In this document: piece by piece, positions 27,770 to 39,167 of the stretch
Numbering within the stretch: position 1 is the stretch's first letter
Layout of the letters: the number at the start of each line of letters is the position of its first letter
Notes under the pieces: model-generated
Databases searched by the model: none
What the model saw: only the letters and a program-made list of their open reading frames with translations
Told to the model about the DNA's origin: nothing
Source of the DNA: Escherichia coli
GTDB taxonomy: Bacteria; Pseudomonadota; Gammaproteobacteria; Enterobacterales; Enterobacteriaceae
Length of the DNA: 64,000 nt
Reading direction: 5' to 3' (one strand)
Assembly (NCBI RefSeq): GCF_050920415.1
Contig: NZ_CP169309.1
Translations under genes and position numbers: made by a program

Positions 27770-28309
27770 ATGAGTAACTGGTGGCAGGAACTGTTACGTT
27801 TCTTCCTGCGTGGTCTTACGCTACAACAGTTAATTCATATGCTTATTATTTTAATTGCCCTGATAATAATCACCCCAGCATCAATTAAAGAGTGGGTAGA
27901 TATAAGGAACCCCGAAATACTTCCAGATCACTGGATGTATTACGCAATGCTTTTGTGTATCAGTTATGTTCTGAACAGGGTGATGGAGTTTATATTTCTG
28001 GCATCTTCAGACAGATATAAAAAATATCTCAGTAAGAGAGATGAGGATAAAGTAATTGTGGAGACTGAGCGCCTGTTCAATTCTCTGAGTATTCAGGAAA
28101 AAGAGGTTTTAGCATTTGCTGTTATGGCAAATAACAAAATCGTACTTAAGCACGGCGATCCGGTCGCTTTATCTCTTATGAGAAAAGGCCTTCTCCATCG
28201 CTCAGGTGTGACTTACAGCGCGTCAGGTAAAGAGAAATTTGTTATACCTGACGTCTGGTTCCATGAGTGTTATATGCGCTTTGCTGGTAAAGCTGATGAG
28301 CTAATTTAG
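27770..28309 (+). CDS. sieB: SieB-like superinfection exclusion membrane protein
   Basis: 179 aa; two N-terminal TM helices; adjacent to N; family assignment from memory. Confidence 0.5.
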   Translation: MSNWWQELLRFFLRGLTLQQLIHMLIILIALIIITPASIKEWVDIRNPEILPDHWMYYAMLLCISYVLNRVMEFIFLASSDRYKKYLSKRDEDKVIVETERLFNSLSIQEKEVLAFAVMANNKIVLKHGDPVALSLMRKGLLHRSGVTYSASGKEKFVIPDVWFHECYMRFAGKADELI

Positions 28310-28330
28310 TTCCTCGACGGCGGGGTATCG

Positions 28331-28714
28331 TCATCTCGCCGTCAGTTGTTTTGATTTCCGGTAGCCTGCTGCGTAAAGAGCTACATTTGGAAGACATACA
28401 CCAGTTTCTGGTTGCTTATGTCCAAACTCATTCGCGTACACAATGGCCGCTCTCTCCAGATTGCGTCTGTATTCTTTCTGTTGCCAGATCACGTCCTGTG
28501 CCATGAACTTAATTGGCTTAGCGTCTTCTATGCGCTCAGGCGTTTCGTGAGTACCTTTAGCCTGAATCTGCGCTCTGCTTAGAGTAGGGCGGTGTAATAC
28601 TTCTGAACTTATTGCTTCTTCGCGGGCCAGTACGCCGTTAGCTAATGCCTTTGCCTTTAAACGCTCACGACGACGAGAACGTGAATTGCCTTTGAACTGA
28701 GTTCTGCGTGTCAT
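28331..28714 (-). CDS. N-like antitermination protein (P22 gp24 type)
   Basis: Arg-rich N-terminus RRTQFKGNSRSRRRER; C-terminus LPNVALYAAGYRKSKQLTAR; downstream of pL/nutL. Confidence 0.7.
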   Translation of the reverse strand: MTRRTQFKGNSRSRRRERLKAKALANGVLAREEAISSEVLHRPTLSRAQIQAKGTHETPERIEDAKPIKFMAQDVIWQQKEYRRNLERAAIVYANEFGHKQPETGVCLPNVALYAAGYRKSKQLTAR

Positions 28715-28879
28715 ATAGACCTCCTGATGAACTTTGGTGGTGTGGTAGGTGGGAGACCCATTTCGACCTGTTTCGGCCTACTTCAATTCGGCAATAGTCC
28801 CGCAGGCCTCGCCGCTTTACGTGCGACATATTCCCGTCCATGAACCCTTCACCACACCCCAAAGTTCACTTTGGTTATT

Positions 28880-28894
28880 GCGCTTTGTCAGCGC
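28880..28894 (-). promoter_or_regulatory. nutL boxB-like hairpin (reverse strand GCGCTGACAAAGCGC)
   Basis: 5-bp stem / 5-nt loop between pL and N; matches remembered P22-type boxB. Confidence 0.5.
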
Positions 28895-28962
28895 CGTAGA
28901 TTCATATTCGAATCGTTGTATATTCACCGCCCTGGTGAGTAGTGCGTCCTGCTGATGTGTTT

Positions 28963-29025
28963 AGTATCACCGCCAGTGGTATTTATGTCAACACCGCCAG
29001 AGATAATTTATCACCGCAGATGGTT
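28963..29025 (-). promoter_or_regulatory. pL promoter with OL1-OL2-OL3 operators
   Basis: TATCACCGCCAGTGGTA (28965-28981), CAACACCGCCAGAGATA (28989-29005), TATCACCGCAGATGGTT (29009-29025); reverse-strand -35 TTGACA and -10 GATACT. Confidence 0.75.
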
Positions 29026-29182
29026 ATCTGTATGTTTTTTATATAGATTTATTTTTTTGCAGGGGTGTGTGGCTTGGGAGGTGATCGAGAGATCTGAATT
29101 GCGATGTTTAGTGAGTTGTATCTATTAATTTTCAAATAAATACAATTGGTTATGTGTTATTGGGTGAAGGGGATCGTGAGGC

Positions 29183-29208
29183 AAAGAAAACCCGGCGCTG
29201 AGGCCGGG
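29183..29208 (-). terminator. intrinsic terminator ending the cI-orfA-orfB operon
   Basis: Reverse strand: CCCGGC-loop-GCCGGG hairpin followed by TTTTCTTT, 8 bp after orfB stop. Confidence 0.55.
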
Positions 29209-29215
29209 TTGTGTG

Positions 29216-29587
29216 TTACTTAAGAACGAGTCCGTTTAAGGCATCAAGGATTTTGGAAACATAACTTCCAAAAATGTAGGCGCAAAATGCGAACACGAAA
29301 CTGACAACGACCGCAGATGCCTTGATGGTGATTTTTGCTGAGCTAATGCTTGTCTCAATACCTGACAGACGAGAATCTACAGATTTTATATCTGACTTTA
29401 CTTCAGCGAGATCGCGCTTGATGTATTCAACATCAGACTCTAGCTTTGCAACTCTAGCCTCAAGCATGTTACCTCCGCCGTTTCCTCCACCATGCCGTGA
29501 GTATGCATCATCAGTGGAATAGTGTCCAATTGGGCGAGATATGTTTTGATTTGGACGAAGCTGAGCAACCTTGTTATCTAAACTCAT
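29216..29587 (-). CDS. rex-slot cassette gene B: small protein with Gly-rich segment, coiled coil and C-terminal TM helix
   Basis: 123 aa; GGGNGGGN, heptad-like LEARVAKLESDVEYIKRDLAEVKSDIKSVDSRL, hydrophobic AVVVSFVFAFCAYIFGSYV; overlaps gene A by 14 bp; resembles XhlA-type architecture from memory. Confidence 0.55.
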   Translation of the reverse strand: MSLDNKVAQLRPNQNISRPIGHYSTDDAYSRHGGGNGGGNMLEARVAKLESDVEYIKRDLAEVKSDIKSVDSRLSGIETSISSAKITIKASAVVVSFVFAFCAYIFGSYVSKILDALNGLVLK

Positions 29588-30011
29588 CGCGAACTGATCC
29601 TGTTATCTTCACGTCAAAAAACGAACTTTTTACATCAATTACTTCGCCTTTATCAGGATTAACCAGTGATGCTCTAACTTCGAATATCCCAGGCTTGATA
29701 ATTTTCACCCTTGGGAAGTTAATTCTCATAGAAGTTGATACGATGGTTTCTCCATCGTTGGCTTCTGCTACCGTAAAAAACTTATGGTTGGAGTACAGTT
29801 TTGTGTCAATTGGTATCGGTATTTCTTGAGCATTGAAAACCTCAATGCCTATGGAATATTTTTTTGTAGCCTTAAGGCCGATAAAAAAAGCGCCAAATGA
29901 TAGATCCACTTCATGGGAGTCTTTATCCATTTCATAGATAAGAACTGGAGTTACTGGGTTGCCTTCATCCATCGCAATCGGAATGATATAAGAAATACGT
30001 TCTTTAATCAT
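29574..30011 (-). CDS. rex-slot cassette gene A: hypothetical soluble protein, 145 aa
   Basis: ATG 7 nt after cI stop on same strand; AT-rich; no family recognised. Confidence 0.55.
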   Translation of the reverse strand: MIKERISYIIPIAMDEGNPVTPVLIYEMDKDSHEVDLSFGAFFIGLKATKKYSIGIEVFNAQEIPIPIDTKLYSNHKFFTVAEANDGETIVSTSMRINFPRVKIIKPGIFEVRASLVNPDKGEVIDVKSSFFDVKITGSVRDEFR

Positions 30012-30018
30012 TTACGTG

Positions 30019-30735
<717 letters not shown>

Positions 30736-30742
30736 TTAAATC

Positions 30743-30806
30743 TATCACCGCAAGGGATAAATATCTAACACCGTGCGTGTTGACTGTTTTACCTCTAGCG
30801 GTGATA
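30743..30806. promoter_or_regulatory. OR3-OR2-OR1 operators with pRM/pR
   Basis: TATCACCGCAAGGGATA, TAACACCGTGCGTGTTG, TACCTCTAGCGGTGATA; -35 TTGACT and -10 GATAAT for pR. Confidence 0.8.
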
Positions 30807-30832
30807 ATGGTTGCATGTACTAAGGAGGTTGT

Positions 30833-31033
30833 ATGGAACAACGCATAACCCTGAAAGATTATGCAATGCGCTTTGGGCAAACCAAGACAGCTAAAGATCT
30901 CGGTGTATATCAAAGCGCGATCAACAAGGCCATTCATTCAGGCCGAAATATTTTTTTAACTATAAACGCTGATGGAAGCGTTTATGCGGAAGAGGTAAAG
31001 CCCTTCCCAAGTAACAAAAAAACAACTGCATAA
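30833..31033 (+). CDS. cro: Cro repressor, lambda type
   Basis: 66 aa, near-identical to remembered lambda Cro. Confidence 0.9.
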
Positions 31034-31171
31034 GTAACACCGCTATTTTCACAATGGACATTCGTCCTACGTCGCTGACAAAGCGAGTCCCAAGATATCT
31101 GACCAACTAAGGCCATATGCGTTTCCACGCATACCTTTCAACTAACTATTCACTATTGGAAATCTTAAGAA

Positions 31172-31468
31172 ATGGAACGAACAAGTTACAGCAAACTATC
31201 ACAGCGTGACGTTGATCGCGCAGAAACAGATTTACTCATCAACCTATCAACGCTTACCCAGCGCGGTCTGGCAAAGATGATTGGCTGTCATGAATCGAAG
31301 ATAAGCAGAACGGACTGGCGGTTTATTGCTTCGGTCTTGTGTGCTTTCGGAATGGCATCAGACATCAGTCCGATTAGCAGGGCTTTTAAGTATGCGCTTG
31401 ATGAAATCACCAATAAAAAACGCCCGGCGGCAACCGAGCGTTCTGATCAAATACAAATGGAATTTTAA
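31172..31468 (+). CDS. cII: CII-like transcriptional activator (mosaic)
   Basis: 98 aa; C-terminal TNKKRPAATERSDQIQMEF matches lambda CII, N-terminal ~75 aa diverge. Confidence 0.65.
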   Translation: MERTSYSKLSQRDVDRAETDLLINLSTLTQRGLAKMIGCHESKISRTDWRFIASVLCAFGMASDISPISRAFKYALDEITNKKRPAATERSDQIQMEF

Positions 31469-31630
31469 CAACATCCAACGAGGTAATTATATGCGAAAAA
31501 CGCAGGAAAATAAACGCGTTAATCACCGAAAAGATGTGCTACGTGACCAGTTTTATCAGGGGGTTAATCCAGCAATAGCTGTGCCACTGAGAGAAATACT
31601 TAACAGGTACAAAACTTCGGAGAAGTCAAA

Positions 31631-32407
31631 ATGAGCATGAATCTTATGGCTAAGGCCATGAATATAAAGGTTGGCAACCCACTGAGAAAACTGGTTCTGA
31701 TTAAACTTGCCGATAACGCCAATGATAATGGCGAATGCTGGCCTTCATATCAACATGTCGCTGACCAGTGTGAGGTGAGCAGATCGACAGTAAAAAGTCA
31801 CATTAGGGCACTGGAAGAGATGGGGCTTTTGAAAAGGGAATTCAGAAGAAAAGGAGAGCTTAACCAGTCAAACGTTTTTTATCTGACGCTGGATAATGCA
31901 CAACAAATCCAACCAGAATCAGGTGGGGCAGGAGCTGCCCGGGGTGGGGCAGGAGCTGCCCTAGGGGGTGGGGCAGGAGCTGCCCCCAGAACCTATCACT
32001 CTTTTGAACCAGTCAATGAACCTAAAAACATTATGTTCGAACATGTCCGAACGGAGTGTGAAAAAACTCCTGACCGTCACGAAGAAACCGACAAGGCATT
32101 CGAGGAAATATTCTGGTGTGCAGGCATGCGGAAGGCCGGGAAGAAAAACGCAGCGTCGGCATTCAGAACACAGTTCAGGGAATGGCGTAAAACTACCAGG
32201 GGTACGGCAAGCGAGTTTGCCACGATGCTGGCAGAAGACATCGCATGCAGGAATGGTAAGCAGTTCGGATTCGACAGGTTGTTACCATCGAGCTACCTGA
32301 ACGGTCAACGCTGGAACGACGAGAAGCCAGAAACTATTCAACCACAATCCAAACCATCATCCGCAATCACCGTATCGAAAACTGGCTACGTGTTTTTCGA
32401 CAGGTGA
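31631..32407 (+). CDS. replication initiator (O-like, HTH N-terminus) containing origin iterons
   Basis: 258 aa; internal Gly/Ala-rich segment encoded by the iterons; position between cII and helicase. Confidence 0.6.
   Translation: MSMNLMAKAMNIKVGNPLRKLVLIKLADNANDNGECWPSYQHVADQCEVSRSTVKSHIRALEEMGLLKREFRRKGELNQSNVFYLTLDNAQQIQPESGGAGAARGGAGAALGGGAGAAPRTYHSFEPVNEPKNIMFEHVRTECEKTPDRHEETDKAFEEIFWCAGMRKAGKKNAASAFRTQFREWRKTTRGTASEFATMLAEDIACRNGKQFGFDRLLPSSYLNGQRWNDEKPETIQPQSKPSSAITVSKTGYVFFDR
31923..31985. repeat. three 18-bp direct repeats GTGGGGCAGGAGCTGCCC, candidate ori iterons
   Basis: Copies at 31923-31940, 31944-31961, 31968-31985; each internally near-palindromic. Confidence 0.55.
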
Positions 32408-32514
32408 ACCATGAAATCAAAAATCAAATCGCTACTGGTCGCTGGTTATAACCACGGCTGGTTAAGTATTTCGTTTGTCGATTTCTGGTTTAAAAATCTC
32501 AATCTGAGGGAATC

Positions 32515-34395
32515 ATGACGCCAAGTGAACTTAGCGACCTGCTTTGGGCGCAGGTTGACAGGGTGGCTCCGCACCTGTTGCCAAACGGCAAGAAAGAGGG
32601 GCATGAGTGGGTTGCCGGTAACGTCAACGGTGACAAGGGAAACAGCCTTAAGGTCAACCTTAGCGGCAAGAAAAAATGGGCTGATTTCGCTGAGGGAGAC
32701 GGCGGTGACATGCTTGATTTGTGGATGGCATGTCGTGGAATTAACCTGCATCAGGCTATGCAGGAAGCGAAAGCCTTTCTCGGTATCAAGGATGACGATC
32801 ACCATTTCGATGCCAAACGTGAGAAGAAATTCTCCAGACCTGATCGCAAGAAAATCGCCCGCTACGTTACCAGAACAGAATCCCATCTTGAGTACCTGCA
32901 ATCGCGTGGCATATCGCCAGAAGTCGTAAAGCGCTACGAGGTTGTCAGCGGCAAGGTGTGGAATGGAGAACGAGAACTTGATGCACTGGTGCTTCCGTAC
33001 AAACGCGATGGTGAGTTGTTGCAGGTCAAGCGAATCAGCACTGAGCGCCCGGACGGGAAGAAAGTCATTATGGCAGAAGGTGATTGTGAACCTTGTCTGT
33101 TCGGATGGCAGGCTCTGGACGCTGGCGTGAGGGCGGTTGTGCTTTGCGAAGGCGAAATTGATTGTATGAGCTATGCGCAATACGGCATCTCGGCGTTATC
33201 CGTGCCGTTTGGTGGAGGAAAAGGCGCTAAGCAGCAGTGGATTGAGTTTGAGTATCACAACCTCGACAGGTTTGAGGAAATATTCATCTCGATGGACGTT
33301 GATGATGTTGGTCGTGAAGCCGCAAGGGAAATCGCAAGCCGACTCGGTGAACATCGTTGCCGTCTTGTTACTCTGCCGTACAAAGACATCAACGAATGCC
33401 TGATGAACGGTGTTACCGAGGATGAAATCTGGCAGTACATCGGCACGGCATCCTACTTCGATCCTGAAGAACTCTACAGCGCGCGAGAGTTTTACCAGGA
33501 CACTATCAACGCTTTCTACGGCAAGCAGCAGTATCTATTTAATCCACCGTGGGAATCTCTGGCAGATAAATTCCAGTTCCGTGAGGCCGAGTTGACGCTG
33601 GTCAATGGTGTGAACGGTCACGGAAAAACGGAGGTTGTCGGGCATATGGCACTTGAGGCAATGCGTCAGGGTGTGAAGACGTGCATCGCGTCACTTGAGC
33701 TGAAGCCTGGTATTCTCCTTAAGCGCCTTACCCGTCAGGCAACGTGCTGCAAGATGCCGCCAGTGCTTGAAATTGACTCTGCATTTAAATTCTATGACGA
33801 AAGACTTTGGGTGTTTGGCCTGACCGGAACGGCGAAAGCCGACAGGTTGATCGAAATATTCGACTACGCTCGCCGCCGATACGGCATCCAGTTATTCATC
33901 ATCGACAGCCTGATGAAATGCGGCATAGGTGACGATGACTATAACGGGCAGAAAGCATTTGTTGACTCGATTTGCGACTTCAAAAACAAAACAAACTCCC
34001 ACGTCATTCTCGTTACTCACTCCAGAAAAGGAGACAGCGAAGAAAAACCAACCGGGAAAATGGACGTAAAAGGCTCTGGAGCGATAACAGACCTGACAGA
34101 CAACCTTTTCATCATCTGGCGTAACAAGGCTCGCGAGAGAGCGTTACAGAGAGTTCAGAGTGGTGAAAAGATGTCAGAGAAGGACGAACAGCTACTGGCA
34201 TCTCCGGCATCTGTTTTGATGCTTGAAAAACAACGTAACGGCGAAGGTTGGGAAGGTGGTGTCCCGTTGTTCCTTGACGAGCAATCGCACCAGTTCCTGC
34301 AACTTGAATCAGGATCGCCTTATAGCTACATCGCCAATATGCCGAAATCGGAATATGACGAGGCGTGGCGACAGGAAAACGTGACGGAGTATTAA
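32515..34395 (+). CDS. primase (toprim) / DnaB-like helicase fusion replication protein
   Basis: 626 aa; toprim-like VVLCEGEIDCMSY, Walker A GVNGHGKT, Walker B-like LFIIDSL. Confidence 0.65.
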   Translation: MTPSELSDLLWAQVDRVAPHLLPNGKKEGHEWVAGNVNGDKGNSLKVNLSGKKKWADFAEGDGGDMLDLWMACRGINLHQAMQEAKAFLGIKDDDHHFDAKREKKFSRPDRKKIARYVTRTESHLEYLQSRGISPEVVKRYEVVSGKVWNGERELDALVLPYKRDGELLQVKRISTERPDGKKVIMAEGDCEPCLFGWQALDAGVRAVVLCEGEIDCMSYAQYGISALSVPFGGGKGAKQQWIEFEYHNLDRFEEIFISMDVDDVGREAAREIASRLGEHRCRLVTLPYKDINECLMNGVTEDEIWQYIGTASYFDPEELYSAREFYQDTINAFYGKQQYLFNPPWESLADKFQFREAELTLVNGVNGHGKTEVVGHMALEAMRQGVKTCIASLELKPGILLKRLTRQATCCKMPPVLEIDSAFKFYDERLWVFGLTGTAKADRLIEIFDYARRRYGIQLFIIDSLMKCGIGDDDYNGQKAFVDSICDFKNKTNSHVILVTHSRKGDSEEKPTGKMDVKGSGAITDLTDNLFIIWRNKARERALQRVQSGEKMSEKDEQLLASPASVLMLEKQRNGEGWEGGVPLFLDEQSHQFLQLESGSPYSYIANMPKSEYDEAWRQENVTEY

Positions 34396-34421
34396 ATGAC
34401 CATCTACATCACTGAGCTAAT

Positions 34422-34452
34422 AAAAGGCCTGCTGGTAATCGCAGGCCTTTTT
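34422..34452 (+). terminator. tR2-like intrinsic terminator before ninB
   Basis: AAAAGGCCTGC-loop-GCAGGCCTTTTT perfect inverted repeat with flanking A/T runs. Confidence 0.55.
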
Positions 34453-34472
34453 ATTTGGGGGAGAGGGAAGTC

Positions 34473-34913
34473 ATGAAAAAACTAACCTTTGAAATTCGAT
34501 CTCCGGCACATCAGCAAAACGCTATTCACGCGGTACAGCAAATCCTTCCAGACCCAACCAAGCCAATCGTAGTGATCATTCAGGAGCGCAACCGCAGCTT
34601 AGACCAGAATCGGAAGCTTTGGGCTTGCCTTGGTGACGTCTCTCGTCAGGTTGAATGGCATGGGCGTTGGCTGGATGCAGAAAGCTGGAAGTGTGTGTTT
34701 ACCGCAGCATTAAAGCAGCAGGATGTTGTTCCTAACCTTGCCGGGAATGGCTTTGTGGTAATAGGCCAGTCAACCAGCAGGATGCGTGTAGGCGAATTTG
34801 CGGAGCTATTAGAGCTTATACAGGCATTCGGTACAGAGCGTGGCGTTAAGTGGTCAGACGAAGCGCGACTGGCTCTCGAATGGAAAGCGCGATGGGGAGA
34901 TCGGGCTGCATGA
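34473..34913 (+). CDS. ninB: NinB (Orf recombination mediator)
   Basis: MKKLTFEIRSPAHQQNAIHAVQQILPD near-identical to remembered lambda NinB. Confidence 0.85.
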   Translation: MKKLTFEIRSPAHQQNAIHAVQQILPDPTKPIVVIIQERNRSLDQNRKLWACLGDVSRQVEWHGRWLDAESWKCVFTAALKQQDVVPNLAGNGFVVIGQSTSRMRVGEFAELLELIQAFGTERGVKWSDEARLALEWKARWGDRAA

Positions 34914-35437
34914 CTATCAAATCAAATACGCCAGCACACGACAAGGACTGCTGGCAAACGCCGCTTTGGCTTTTTGATGCACTGGATATTGAGTTTGGAT
35001 TCTGGCTGGATTCGGCAGCGAGCGACAAAAACGCTCTGTGCGCTCACTGGCTAACTGAGGCCGACGACGCGCTCAATTCTGAGTGGGTAAGCCACGGTGC
35101 AATCTGGAATAACCCACCGTACAGCAATATCAGGCCGTGGGTGGAAAAAGCCGCTGAGCAGTGTATACAACAGCGACAGACGGTAGTGATGCTTGTGCCA
35201 GAGGATATGTCAGTCGGATGGTTCAGCAAGGCTCTGGAGAGTGTCGACGAAGTTCGTATTATCACTGATGGACGGATTAATTTTATCGAACCATCGACAG
35301 GGCTAGAGAAGAAGGGAAACAGCAAAGGTTCCATGCTGCTGATTTGGCGACCGTTCATCAGTCCTCGACGGATGTTTACTACCGTATCCAAAGCGGCATT
35401 GATGGCGATCGGGCAGGGCGTCAGGAGGGCGGCATGA
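34910..35437 (+). CDS. phage DNA N6-adenine methyltransferase (orphan, Dam-like)
   Basis: 175 aa from ATG overlapping ninB stop; NPPY catalytic motif. Confidence 0.65.
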
Positions 35438-38085: not shown

Positions 38086-38383
38086 GCGTTTTAAGCACGA
38101 CCTTTCTGAAAGCGCATCAAACCAAATACCAGACAGACCAAAATAATCACCTTATCCGCTGTGGCTACGGTGCGGTGTGCTTTGCATAAAAGAAAACCAG
38201 CTCAATGGCTGGCTTCGTGAAAGCGGGTGGCAAGAGGTTGCGCTAACAACCTCATGCCGTTTTGCCCGTGCATATCGGTCACGAACAAATCTGATTACTA
38301 AACACAGTAGCCTGGATTTGTTCTATCAGTAATCGACCTTATTCCTAATTAAATAGAGCAAATCCCCTTATTGGGGGTAAGAC

Positions 38384-38707
38384 ATGAAGATGCCAGAAAA
38401 ACATGACCTGTTAGCCGCCATTCTCGCGGCAAAGGAACAAGGCATCGGGGCAATCCTTGCGTTTGCAATGGCGTACCTTCGCGGCAGATATAATGGCGGT
38501 GCGTTTACAAAAACAGTAATCGACGCAACGATGTGCGCCATTATCGCCTGGTTCATTCGTGACCTTCTCGACTTCGCCGGACTAAGTAGCAATCTCGCTT
38601 ATATAACGAGCGTGTTCATCGGCTACATCGGTACTGACTCGATTGGTTCGCTTATCAAACGCTTCGCTGCTAAAAAAGCCGGAGTAGAAGATGGTGGAAA
38701 TCAATAA
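38384..38707 (+). CDS. S: holin/antiholin S (dual-start MKMPEK)
   Basis: 107 aa, matches lambda S. Confidence 0.95.
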
Positions 38708-39167
38708 TCAACGTAAGGCGTTCCTCGATATGCTGGCGTGGTCAGAGGGAACTGATAACGGACGTCAGAAAACCAGAAATCATGGTTATGACGTCATTGT
38801 AGGCGGGGGGCTATTCACTGATTACTCCGATCACCCTCGCAAACTTGTCACGCTAAACCCCAAACTCAAATCAACAGCAGCCGGACGTTACCAGCTTCTT
38901 TCCCGTTGGTGGGATGCCTACCGCAAGCAGCTTGGCCTGAAAGACTTCTCTCCGAAAAGTCAGGACGCTGTGGCATTGCAGCAGATTAAGGAGCGTGGCG
39001 CTTTGCCGATGATTGATCGCGGTGATATTCGTCAGGCAATCGACCGTTGCAGCAATATCTGGGCTTCACTGCCGGGCGCTGGTTATGGCCAGTTCGAGCA
39101 TAAGGCTGACAGCCTGATTGCAAAATTCAAAGAAGCAGGCGGAACGGTTAGAGAGATTGAGGTATGA
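38691..39167 (+). CDS. R: endolysin R (lytic transglycosylase)
   Basis: 158 aa, matches lambda R. Confidence 0.95.

Follow-up and report, generated by a model that had tools for sequence, protein, structure and literature searches.

A Lambda-Like cII Tail in an Escherichia coli Lambdoid Region as the Probable cII Part of an Independently Assorting tO-oop-pO Cassette

Introduction

CII is the transcriptional activator of lysogeny establishment. In the 64,000 nucleotides of Escherichia coli DNA analyzed here (contig NZ_CP169309.1 of RefSeq assembly GCF_050920415.1; hereafter the window, numbered from its first letter), the gene for a CII homolog ends in a lambda-like C-terminus that follows a core unlike that of lambda. 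We consider it very probable that this C-terminus is the cII part of an independently assorting tO-oop-pO cassette (approximately 31407-31498) situated between cII core and replication module. The basis for this reading, documented below, consists of sequence relationships, covariation within a hairpin, and discordant ancestry of core and tail. The observation is correct, and the phenomenon behind it, ordinary lambdoid mosaicism, is known; beyond correct annotation it matters little, being the textbook case in one window. The modular theory of phages is reportedly that of Botstein.

In the arrangement that we propose, the window would combine lambda immunity (30023-31047) with an HK97-type nutR-pRE-cII core (31048-31406), followed by a widespread "lambda-type" tO allele (31407-31446) and, from 31447 on, by an oop 5' half, pO, and replication genes of the Min27/24B type. 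The cassette, found in nearly all cII alleles, would be under functional constraint on both strands. Such two-strand constraint, together with the presence of the segment in nearly all cII alleles, would make it one of the few places where cores and replication modules that cannot otherwise be aligned share homology, and hence a site for crossover. Short conserved boundary sequences have been proposed to mediate module exchange (Martinsohn 2008; also Clark et al. 2001, as cited in PMC3349717), and our survey illustrates exchange at a short, conserved, constrained segment: it takes in three cores, four or more tails, more than one downstream type, and a hairpin that covaries. For annotation, the cII tail would best be described as a dual-coding overlap of cII with oop-tO, rather than as a sign of lambda ancestry or an immunity boundary.

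Results and Discussion

The cII Gene and Its Core

The cII gene (31172-31468, plus strand, from the list of open reading frames) encodes 98 amino acids. Pfam Phage_CII (PF05269) matches residues 1-91 (E = 2.7e-33; score 114.5 bits, cutoff 21.3), and the protein resembles the solved lambda CII structures 1XWR, 1ZPQ, and 8IGR in the PDB (E = 2e-9), the phmmer alignment to 1XWR (lambda CII) spanning residues 13-98 at E = 2e-9. On these core sequence matches the product is classed as a member of the CII family, which includes lambda CII and P22 C1. The gene sits on the PR operon between cro and nutR, which lie upstream, and the replication genes, which lie downstream, and this is the position of a cII gene. 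The gene order is cI (minus), cro (plus), cII (plus), a 47-amino-acid ORF, an HTH_36 initiator, and a primase-helicase, and the succession of cro, cII, and replication genes agrees with that in lambda, HK97, 933W, and Min27.

Global alignment with lambda CII (NC_001416) divides the protein into two parts: residues 1-79 have 21 of 73 positions identical (29%), whereas residues 80-98 (TNKKRPAATERSDQIQMEF) have 18 of 19, the sole difference in the tail being D92, where lambda has Glu. The initial annotation, which had reported that about the last 20 residues match lambda while the rest differs, was right on this point, the number being exactly 19. Nucleotide alignment to lambda and other lambdoid cII genes likewise reveals that divergence is not uniform across the gene. 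The core is 55% identical to lambda DNA in a gapped global alignment, a value that is the floor of such alignments, whereas 54 of the last 60 nt of cII are lambda-identical and 31407-31446 is a 40/40 island amid otherwise unalignable sequence, comprising codons for CII residues 80-92 on the plus strand and tO on the minus strand. This 40-mer occurs once in the window and in none of 100 shuffles; the contrast between core and tail is far beyond chance.

The core (31172-31406, plus strand) has no likeness to lambda DNA and is of the HK97/21/933W allele type, with DNA identities of 98% to mEp234, 97% to Min27, 95% to 933W, and 93% to HK97. The N-terminal three quarters of the protein, described at first simply as divergent, are unlike lambda but are not novel, since they represent this common allele. 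A larger block, 31026-31464, matches both 933W and Min27.

Candidate CII-binding repeats at pRE were read from the sequence at the 5' end of cII, at 31181-31194 on the minus strand. They take the form TTGC-TGTAAC-TTGT (31194-31181), the second repeat being one base off the canonical TTGC, and they sit where the mEp234 record EF120460 annotates a "CII binding site at pRE." The second repeat is TTGT and not TTGC because codon 4 of cII is ACA (Thr) and not GCA (Ala). HK97 and phage 21 have GCA (Ala) at this codon; the TTGT variant of the CII box is also found in Min27, 933W, and mEp234-type alleles.

The Right Edge of the Lambda Immunity Block

A lambda-type immunity block comprising cI, OR1-3, PRM/PR, and cro extends over 30023-31047 (1025 nt, 97.6% identical to lambda), with a near-lambda cI at 30019-30732 on the minus strand and a near-lambda cro at 30833-31033 on the plus strand. 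Pairwise blastn found no lambda match between 31047 and 31407, and the approximately 360 nt between the immunity block and the island, which hold nutR, tR1, pRE, and the cII core, are unlike lambda. Annotation transferred from EF120460 places nutR boxA at 31041-31049, boxB at 31072-31086, the pRE -10 element at 31162-31167, and the CII box at 31181-31194. By these alignments the right edge of the lambda block falls inside nutR boxA, just past cro, and since lambda identity ends inside boxA, the junction would sit within a cis-acting antitermination site. The boxA sequence is CGCTATTTT in the window and CGCTCTTAC in lambda.

These coordinates bear directly on the proposal, made in the initial annotation, that a single breakpoint in cII is the right edge of the lambda immunity module, such that the tail would start, or be a remnant of, contiguous lambda DNA. 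Ancestry does shift sharply at 31406/31407, with lambda-type cI-cro nearby, and there is a precedent in the lambda imm21 hybrids, in which the imm21 substitution ends inside cII, the published junction lying just left of oop. The imm-lambda module is indeed present in the window, but the cII tail is not at its edge: the module stops at 31047, within nutR boxA, about 360 nt upstream of the tail. Moreover, the island is only 40-58 nt long, lambda likeness ends at the stop codon, and the downstream region is without lambda-like O/P; the same tail is common to 85 phages of diverse immunities, and HK97, mEp234, and HK106 pair imm-lambda and an HK97-type core with a non-lambda tail. As worded, the proposal is already refuted by the alignments, and we regard an immunity-edge origin of the tail as highly improbable. 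What stands of it is the breakpoint inside cII, borne out by the break in ancestry at 31406/31407 and by the assortment of tails and cores described below, with the amendment that the island has two edges and not one.

The composite found in the window has close counterparts among known phages. HK97 (NC_002167), mEp234, and HK106 (EF120460/EF120461) have the same combination of lambda cI-OR-cro with an HK97-type nutR-pRE-cII core, at 97-98% identity over 30019-31410. Their tail and tO, however, are of a different type, designated B (TKKKSPAATEDFKQIDMQF, with hairpin TCCCCGG/CCGAGGA), that is 72% identical to the window tail, and their downstream module, P22-like gp18/gp12, is unlike that of the window. 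These three are wild lambda-immunity phages, reportedly treated by Juhala in 2000 and Degnan in 2007.

Within the immunity block, Cro and CI each carry few substitutions relative to lambda (in cro, for example, at nucleotides 30938 and 30949; in cI, at 30726 and 30520), and the OR region has two changes (30786 and 30797). The differences in cI, cro, and OR are natural imm-lambda variants like those of wild phages. The N gene (28331-28714) is non-lambda; it matches Pfam N_peptide at E = 1e-15.

The tO Terminator and a Predicted oop RNA

The initial annotation overlooked the oop RNA terminator on the other strand of the island. A terminator scan identified the intrinsic terminator hairpin tO at 31417-31444 on the minus strand, with a U-run at 31420-31415 behind it. 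The hairpin has 12 pairs and a loop of 4, followed by TTTTTTATT (tail TTTT TTATT), and in the scan it is the sole terminator-like site (31444-31417) across 30700-31800. It forms a leftward terminator inside the 3' end of cII, in a segment that is 40/40 identical with lambda tO, and its sequence is the same as that found at the 3' end of lambda oop RNA with its tO. The Lys-Lys codons of CII correspond to the U-tract and the RPAATER codons to the hairpin.

Folding favors the minus strand, which reaches -21 kcal/mol (z = -3.1), whereas the plus strand stays at -11.9 (z = -1.75), and the G-U wobble pairs of the hairpin form on the minus strand only. When the hairpin was compared across 16 phages, which have among them four or more different hairpin sequences, pairing was retained in 94.4% of cells, against 39-58% in slid-partner controls. 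Compensatory double changes were found at 4 of the 12 hairpin pairs in these 16 phages, examples being CG to UA or GC to CG in HK97, 933W, phiEt88, and POCJ13.

Lambda oop is a 77-nt RNA that runs leftward from pO as far as tO and shares 52-55 nt with the 3' end of cII (PMC5869508; PMC3349717). Conservation of oop/pO has been described in 23 lambdoid phages (PMC3349717), where it corresponds to "sequence 5" of Clark et al. (2001). By positional and sequence homology to lambda oop, we predict a cis-antisense RNA of about 66 nt at 31414-31479 on the minus strand, its two ends and the activity of its promoter being modeled on lambda. Read from 31479 to 31414, the predicted RNA covers 31414-31468 of cII, that is 55 nt with the stop codon counted in, to which it is complementary; the cII/oop overlap of lambda is likewise 55 nt. 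Its predicted +1 is the G at 31479, and it would begin GTTGG..., compared with GTTGA... in lambda, the two 5' ends having GTTG in common. In lambda the +1 lies 22 nt beyond the cII stop, and the 3' end follows U6A. The predicted RNA is thus shorter than that of lambda (66 nt vs 77 nt), and its 5' half differs.

A candidate pO -10 element, TATAAT, was read from the sequence at 31486-31491 on the minus strand, where it aligns to the ATTATG/O start of lambda. It overlaps the ATG (31491) of the next ORF, as lambda pO overlaps the start of O. The -10 is perfect, but the best -35 is weak (TTTATT, 3/6) and differs from that of lambda pO. A consensus promoter scan made no call here because of the weak -35, so the assignment of pO is based on the lambda alignment and the perfect -10.

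By analogy with lambda, the two strands of the island would serve two functions. The minus strand would supply the intrinsic terminator of a cis-antisense oop RNA that starts at pO, beyond the cII stop; in lambda this RNA pairs with the 3' end of cII mRNA and leads to RNase III-dependent decay, and the oop-like RNA of the window may act on cII in the same way. The plus strand would encode a dispensable, unstructured CII tail that is the FtsH degradation signal in lambda. In lambda CII the FtsH tag consists of the C-terminal 16 residues (Kobiler 2002, as related in PMC5869508), the last 17 codons are unneeded for CII activity according to published work on lambda, and the tail of the window CII may tag the protein for FtsH likewise. 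Five residues of the tail (K82, K83, P85, Q93, and I94) are invariant in ten diverse CII proteins. Just ahead of it, residues 78-79 are EI in the window CII and GL in Min27/24B.

The 5' half of the predicted RNA departs from published oop sequences. The 33-bp "sequence 5" (ACTGGATCaATCcACAGGAGTaATTATGaCAAA) has no match in the window with up to 3 mismatches allowed, and an Rfam scan of 28000-35000 (E <= 1) returned nothing corresponding to oop. The 5' half forms a 4+2-bp 5' stem only, compared with 11-14 bp in lambda and HK97, so that the window oop has neither sequence 5 nor the long stem-loop I. The same short variant occurs in Min27, JEP4, and Kapi1, and searches for oop that use the 33-bp sequence 5 would miss this Min27/24B-type form. 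We suggest, as a speculation that is unlikely to hold, that the short Min27/24B-type oop, with a consensus -10 and without stem-loop I and sequence 5, could be a functionally distinct antisense regulator, and that the 92-bp cassette could persist partly as a recombination linker. If this were true, the short oop might differ in stability, in RNase III processing, or in the coupling of pO to a replication module other than O/P, and a linker cassette would let cII cores and replication modules re-pair.

Mosaicism of the Cassette

The block map of the region was obtained by pairwise blastn of the window against phage genomes. Lambda matches two intervals, 30023-31047 (97.6%) and 31407-31464 (93%). 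Both mEp234 (98.1%) and HK97 (97.2%) match 30019-31464, with a much poorer tail part in each case, and the Stx2a phage Min27 matches 31026-33000 (97%). The match to JEP4 is confined to a single interval, 31407-31498 (95.8%), this phage being one whose cII core is lambda-type and whose downstream gene differs. Lambda likeness stops again at about 31447-31468, leaving an island of 40-60 nt with two edges. The half of the cassette beyond it (31447-31498), which takes in the final 22 nt of cII, the 5' half of oop, and the region around the pO -10, is of the Min27/24B/JEP4 type, being identical or near-identical to Min27, JEP4, and Kapi1 and unlike lambda past the stop codon.

Lambda itself (38360-38720) shares with the window the gene order cro-nutR-tR1-pRE-cII-oop-pO-replication, the CII family, 18 of 19 residues of the tail, the 40-nt identical tO, and a candidate pO -10 placed over the next ATG; it differs in the cII core, whose protein identity is 29% and whose DNA cannot be aligned, and in having O/P downstream of oop, where the window has the 47-amino-acid ORF, the HTH_36 initiator, and the primase-helicase. 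The Stx2a-converting phages Min27 and vB_EcoP_24B, in turn, share with the window the nutR-cII core, the oop 5' half, pO, the 47-amino-acid ORF, and the replication genes, at 97-98% identity over 31026-33000. They are unlike the window in their HK022/H19B-like immunity and in a tO loop of the D type (TGTGCAAGA), which gives PVCK in place of PAA.

CII was aligned from 15 reference phages, to which 80 IMG/VR loci were added; these 80 are the best matches to the window CII, so that the HK97-type core is over-represented among them and allele frequencies are biased. The lambda-type core carries tail A (PAATERS.QIQMEF) in lambda and tail D (PVCKTERS...) in JEP4. On the HK97-type core we find tail A in the window, 2B8, and Kapi1; tail B in HK97, HK022, and mEp234; tail C in 933W; and tail D in Min27 and phage 21/DE3. 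The P22-like core of epsilon34 and S.Inf 5-2 has tail A. One A tail thus occurs on three unrelated cII cores, and one core occurs with at least four tails. Identities to the window point the same way, with core and tail at 98% and 72% for mEp234, 93% and 72% for HK97, 55% and 90% for lambda, 55% and 94% for JEP4, and 57% and 88% for epsilon34. Core and tail types assort independently, so that recombination at the junction between them is real.

Selection alone might instead account for the tail, if cII descended vertically and its 3' end were frozen by the FtsH tag, oop antisense function, and the tO hairpin. The segment is dual-coding, its hairpin is conserved with compensatory changes, and the five residues noted above are invariant across diverse CII proteins, all of which would be expected under such constraint. 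However, the B and C tails of HK97 and 933W retain the hairpin despite 17-19 differences in 60 nt, so that function does not require nucleotide identity, whereas the perfect identity of the island to lambda extends to loop nucleotides and synonymous sites. An mEp234 core at 98% with a tail at 72%, set against unalignable cores with tails at 88-94% in lambda, JEP4, and epsilon34, likewise speaks against selection alone, and linked variants occur in all combinations. We judge selection alone to be distinctly unlikely; identity at loop and synonymous sites, together with the incongruence of core and tail, indicates exchange.

The cassette that we take to have been exchanged is itself a mosaic. 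Across the 95 loci and the window, we see almost every combination of loop type (CGGCAA or TGTGCAAGA), cII end (last 24 nt lambda-like, Min27-like, or hybrid), and type of downstream sequence. The window is mEp234-like to 31410, is of the A (lambda-like) type over the diagnostic positions 31411-31433, has shared sequence at 31434-31446, and is Min27-like from 31447. By these comparisons, the tO-oop-pO cassette of about 92 bp is chimeric, with a lambda-type tO and a Min27/24B-type 5' half. The order and the donors of the exchanges cannot be reconstructed from these sequences.

A hotspot of recombination among close relatives in the cII tail was also considered and was dropped. Among 87 loci with the HK97-type core (67 haplotypes), the Hudson-Kaplan minimum number of recombination events was Rm = 23, with intervals and four-gamete incompatibilities spread across the whole gene, and the tail was only mildly enriched in incompatibilities (5 intervals in 62 nt vs 12 in 235 nt). 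The tail is special in being the only homology between different cII core families.

In joining different flanking modules through a short conserved segment, the cassette resembles the boundary sequences of lambdoid phages, among which PMC3349717, citing Clark et al. (2001), counts "sequence 5" at oop/pO. It is unlike the published sequence 5 in that the homology of the window consists of the tO/cII-tail part and a different pO variant.

Distribution

The exact 35-40-mer of the island is present in 85 of 50,697 phage records, from phages of E. coli, Salmonella, and Shigella that include lambda, 434, CUS-3, P27, HK633, g341c, and epsilon34; the HK633 record annotates it as "similar to lambda oop." The C-terminus, called lambda-identical in the initial annotation, is so in 40/40 positions of its DNA but is not specific to lambda: the lambda-like tail is an allele spread throughout the population. 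Many Stx phages, as well as 2B8 and ev017, have CII proteins 94-97% identical to that of the window.

Chance similarity or a chimeric assembly of the window was also considered, but we give such an artefact a negligible probability, given a 40/40 match with zero expectation in shuffles, an independent IMG/VR contig (L016) whose identity over 29501-33000 is 98.7% and whose CII is 100% identical, and the occurrence of the same arrangement in complete genomes. The full arrangement (30000-32500) was found in eight of 5,426 complete E. coli genomes, and parts of it in 2,070.

Neighboring Genes

The 47-amino-acid ORF (MRKTQENKRVNHRKDVLRDQFYQG...; 31491-31634, plus strand) is an open translation between oop and the replication genes. 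It has no significant Pfam match. It is a positional analog of P22 orf48 and HK97 gp53, and the gene order around it agrees with Min27 and with the scheme in PMC3349717. Its first approximately 8 nt recur in JEP4 and Kapi1, but beyond them the ORFs of those phages differ, and this would place another mosaic junction at about 31498. Downstream of it lie a gene for an HTH_36 replication-initiator-like protein and then one for a Toprim/DnaB-like primase-helicase.

Inside the HTH_36 initiator gene, at 31920-31985, are three tandem 21-nt repeats (GGGGTGGGGCAGGAGCTGCCC) with spacings of 21 and 24, each holding the inverted repeat GGGCAG-GAG-CTGCCC and coding for a GGAGAA peptide repeat. They are probably the iterons of an origin, by analogy with ori-lambda, which lies within gene O. 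An Rfam match to the snoRNA GlsR24 that lands on these repeats was rejected as spurious (it scores 20 bits, and the gathering score is 100).

Two further ORFs lie on the minus strand at 29216-30011, between cI and pL/N, in the position of lambda rexA/rexB and mEp234 hicAB. The first, of 145 amino acids, has no Pfam or PADLOC match, and the second, of 123 amino acids, has only sub-threshold XhlA-like and CorA-like coiled-coil matches; both are candidates for lysogen-expressed moron or exclusion genes.
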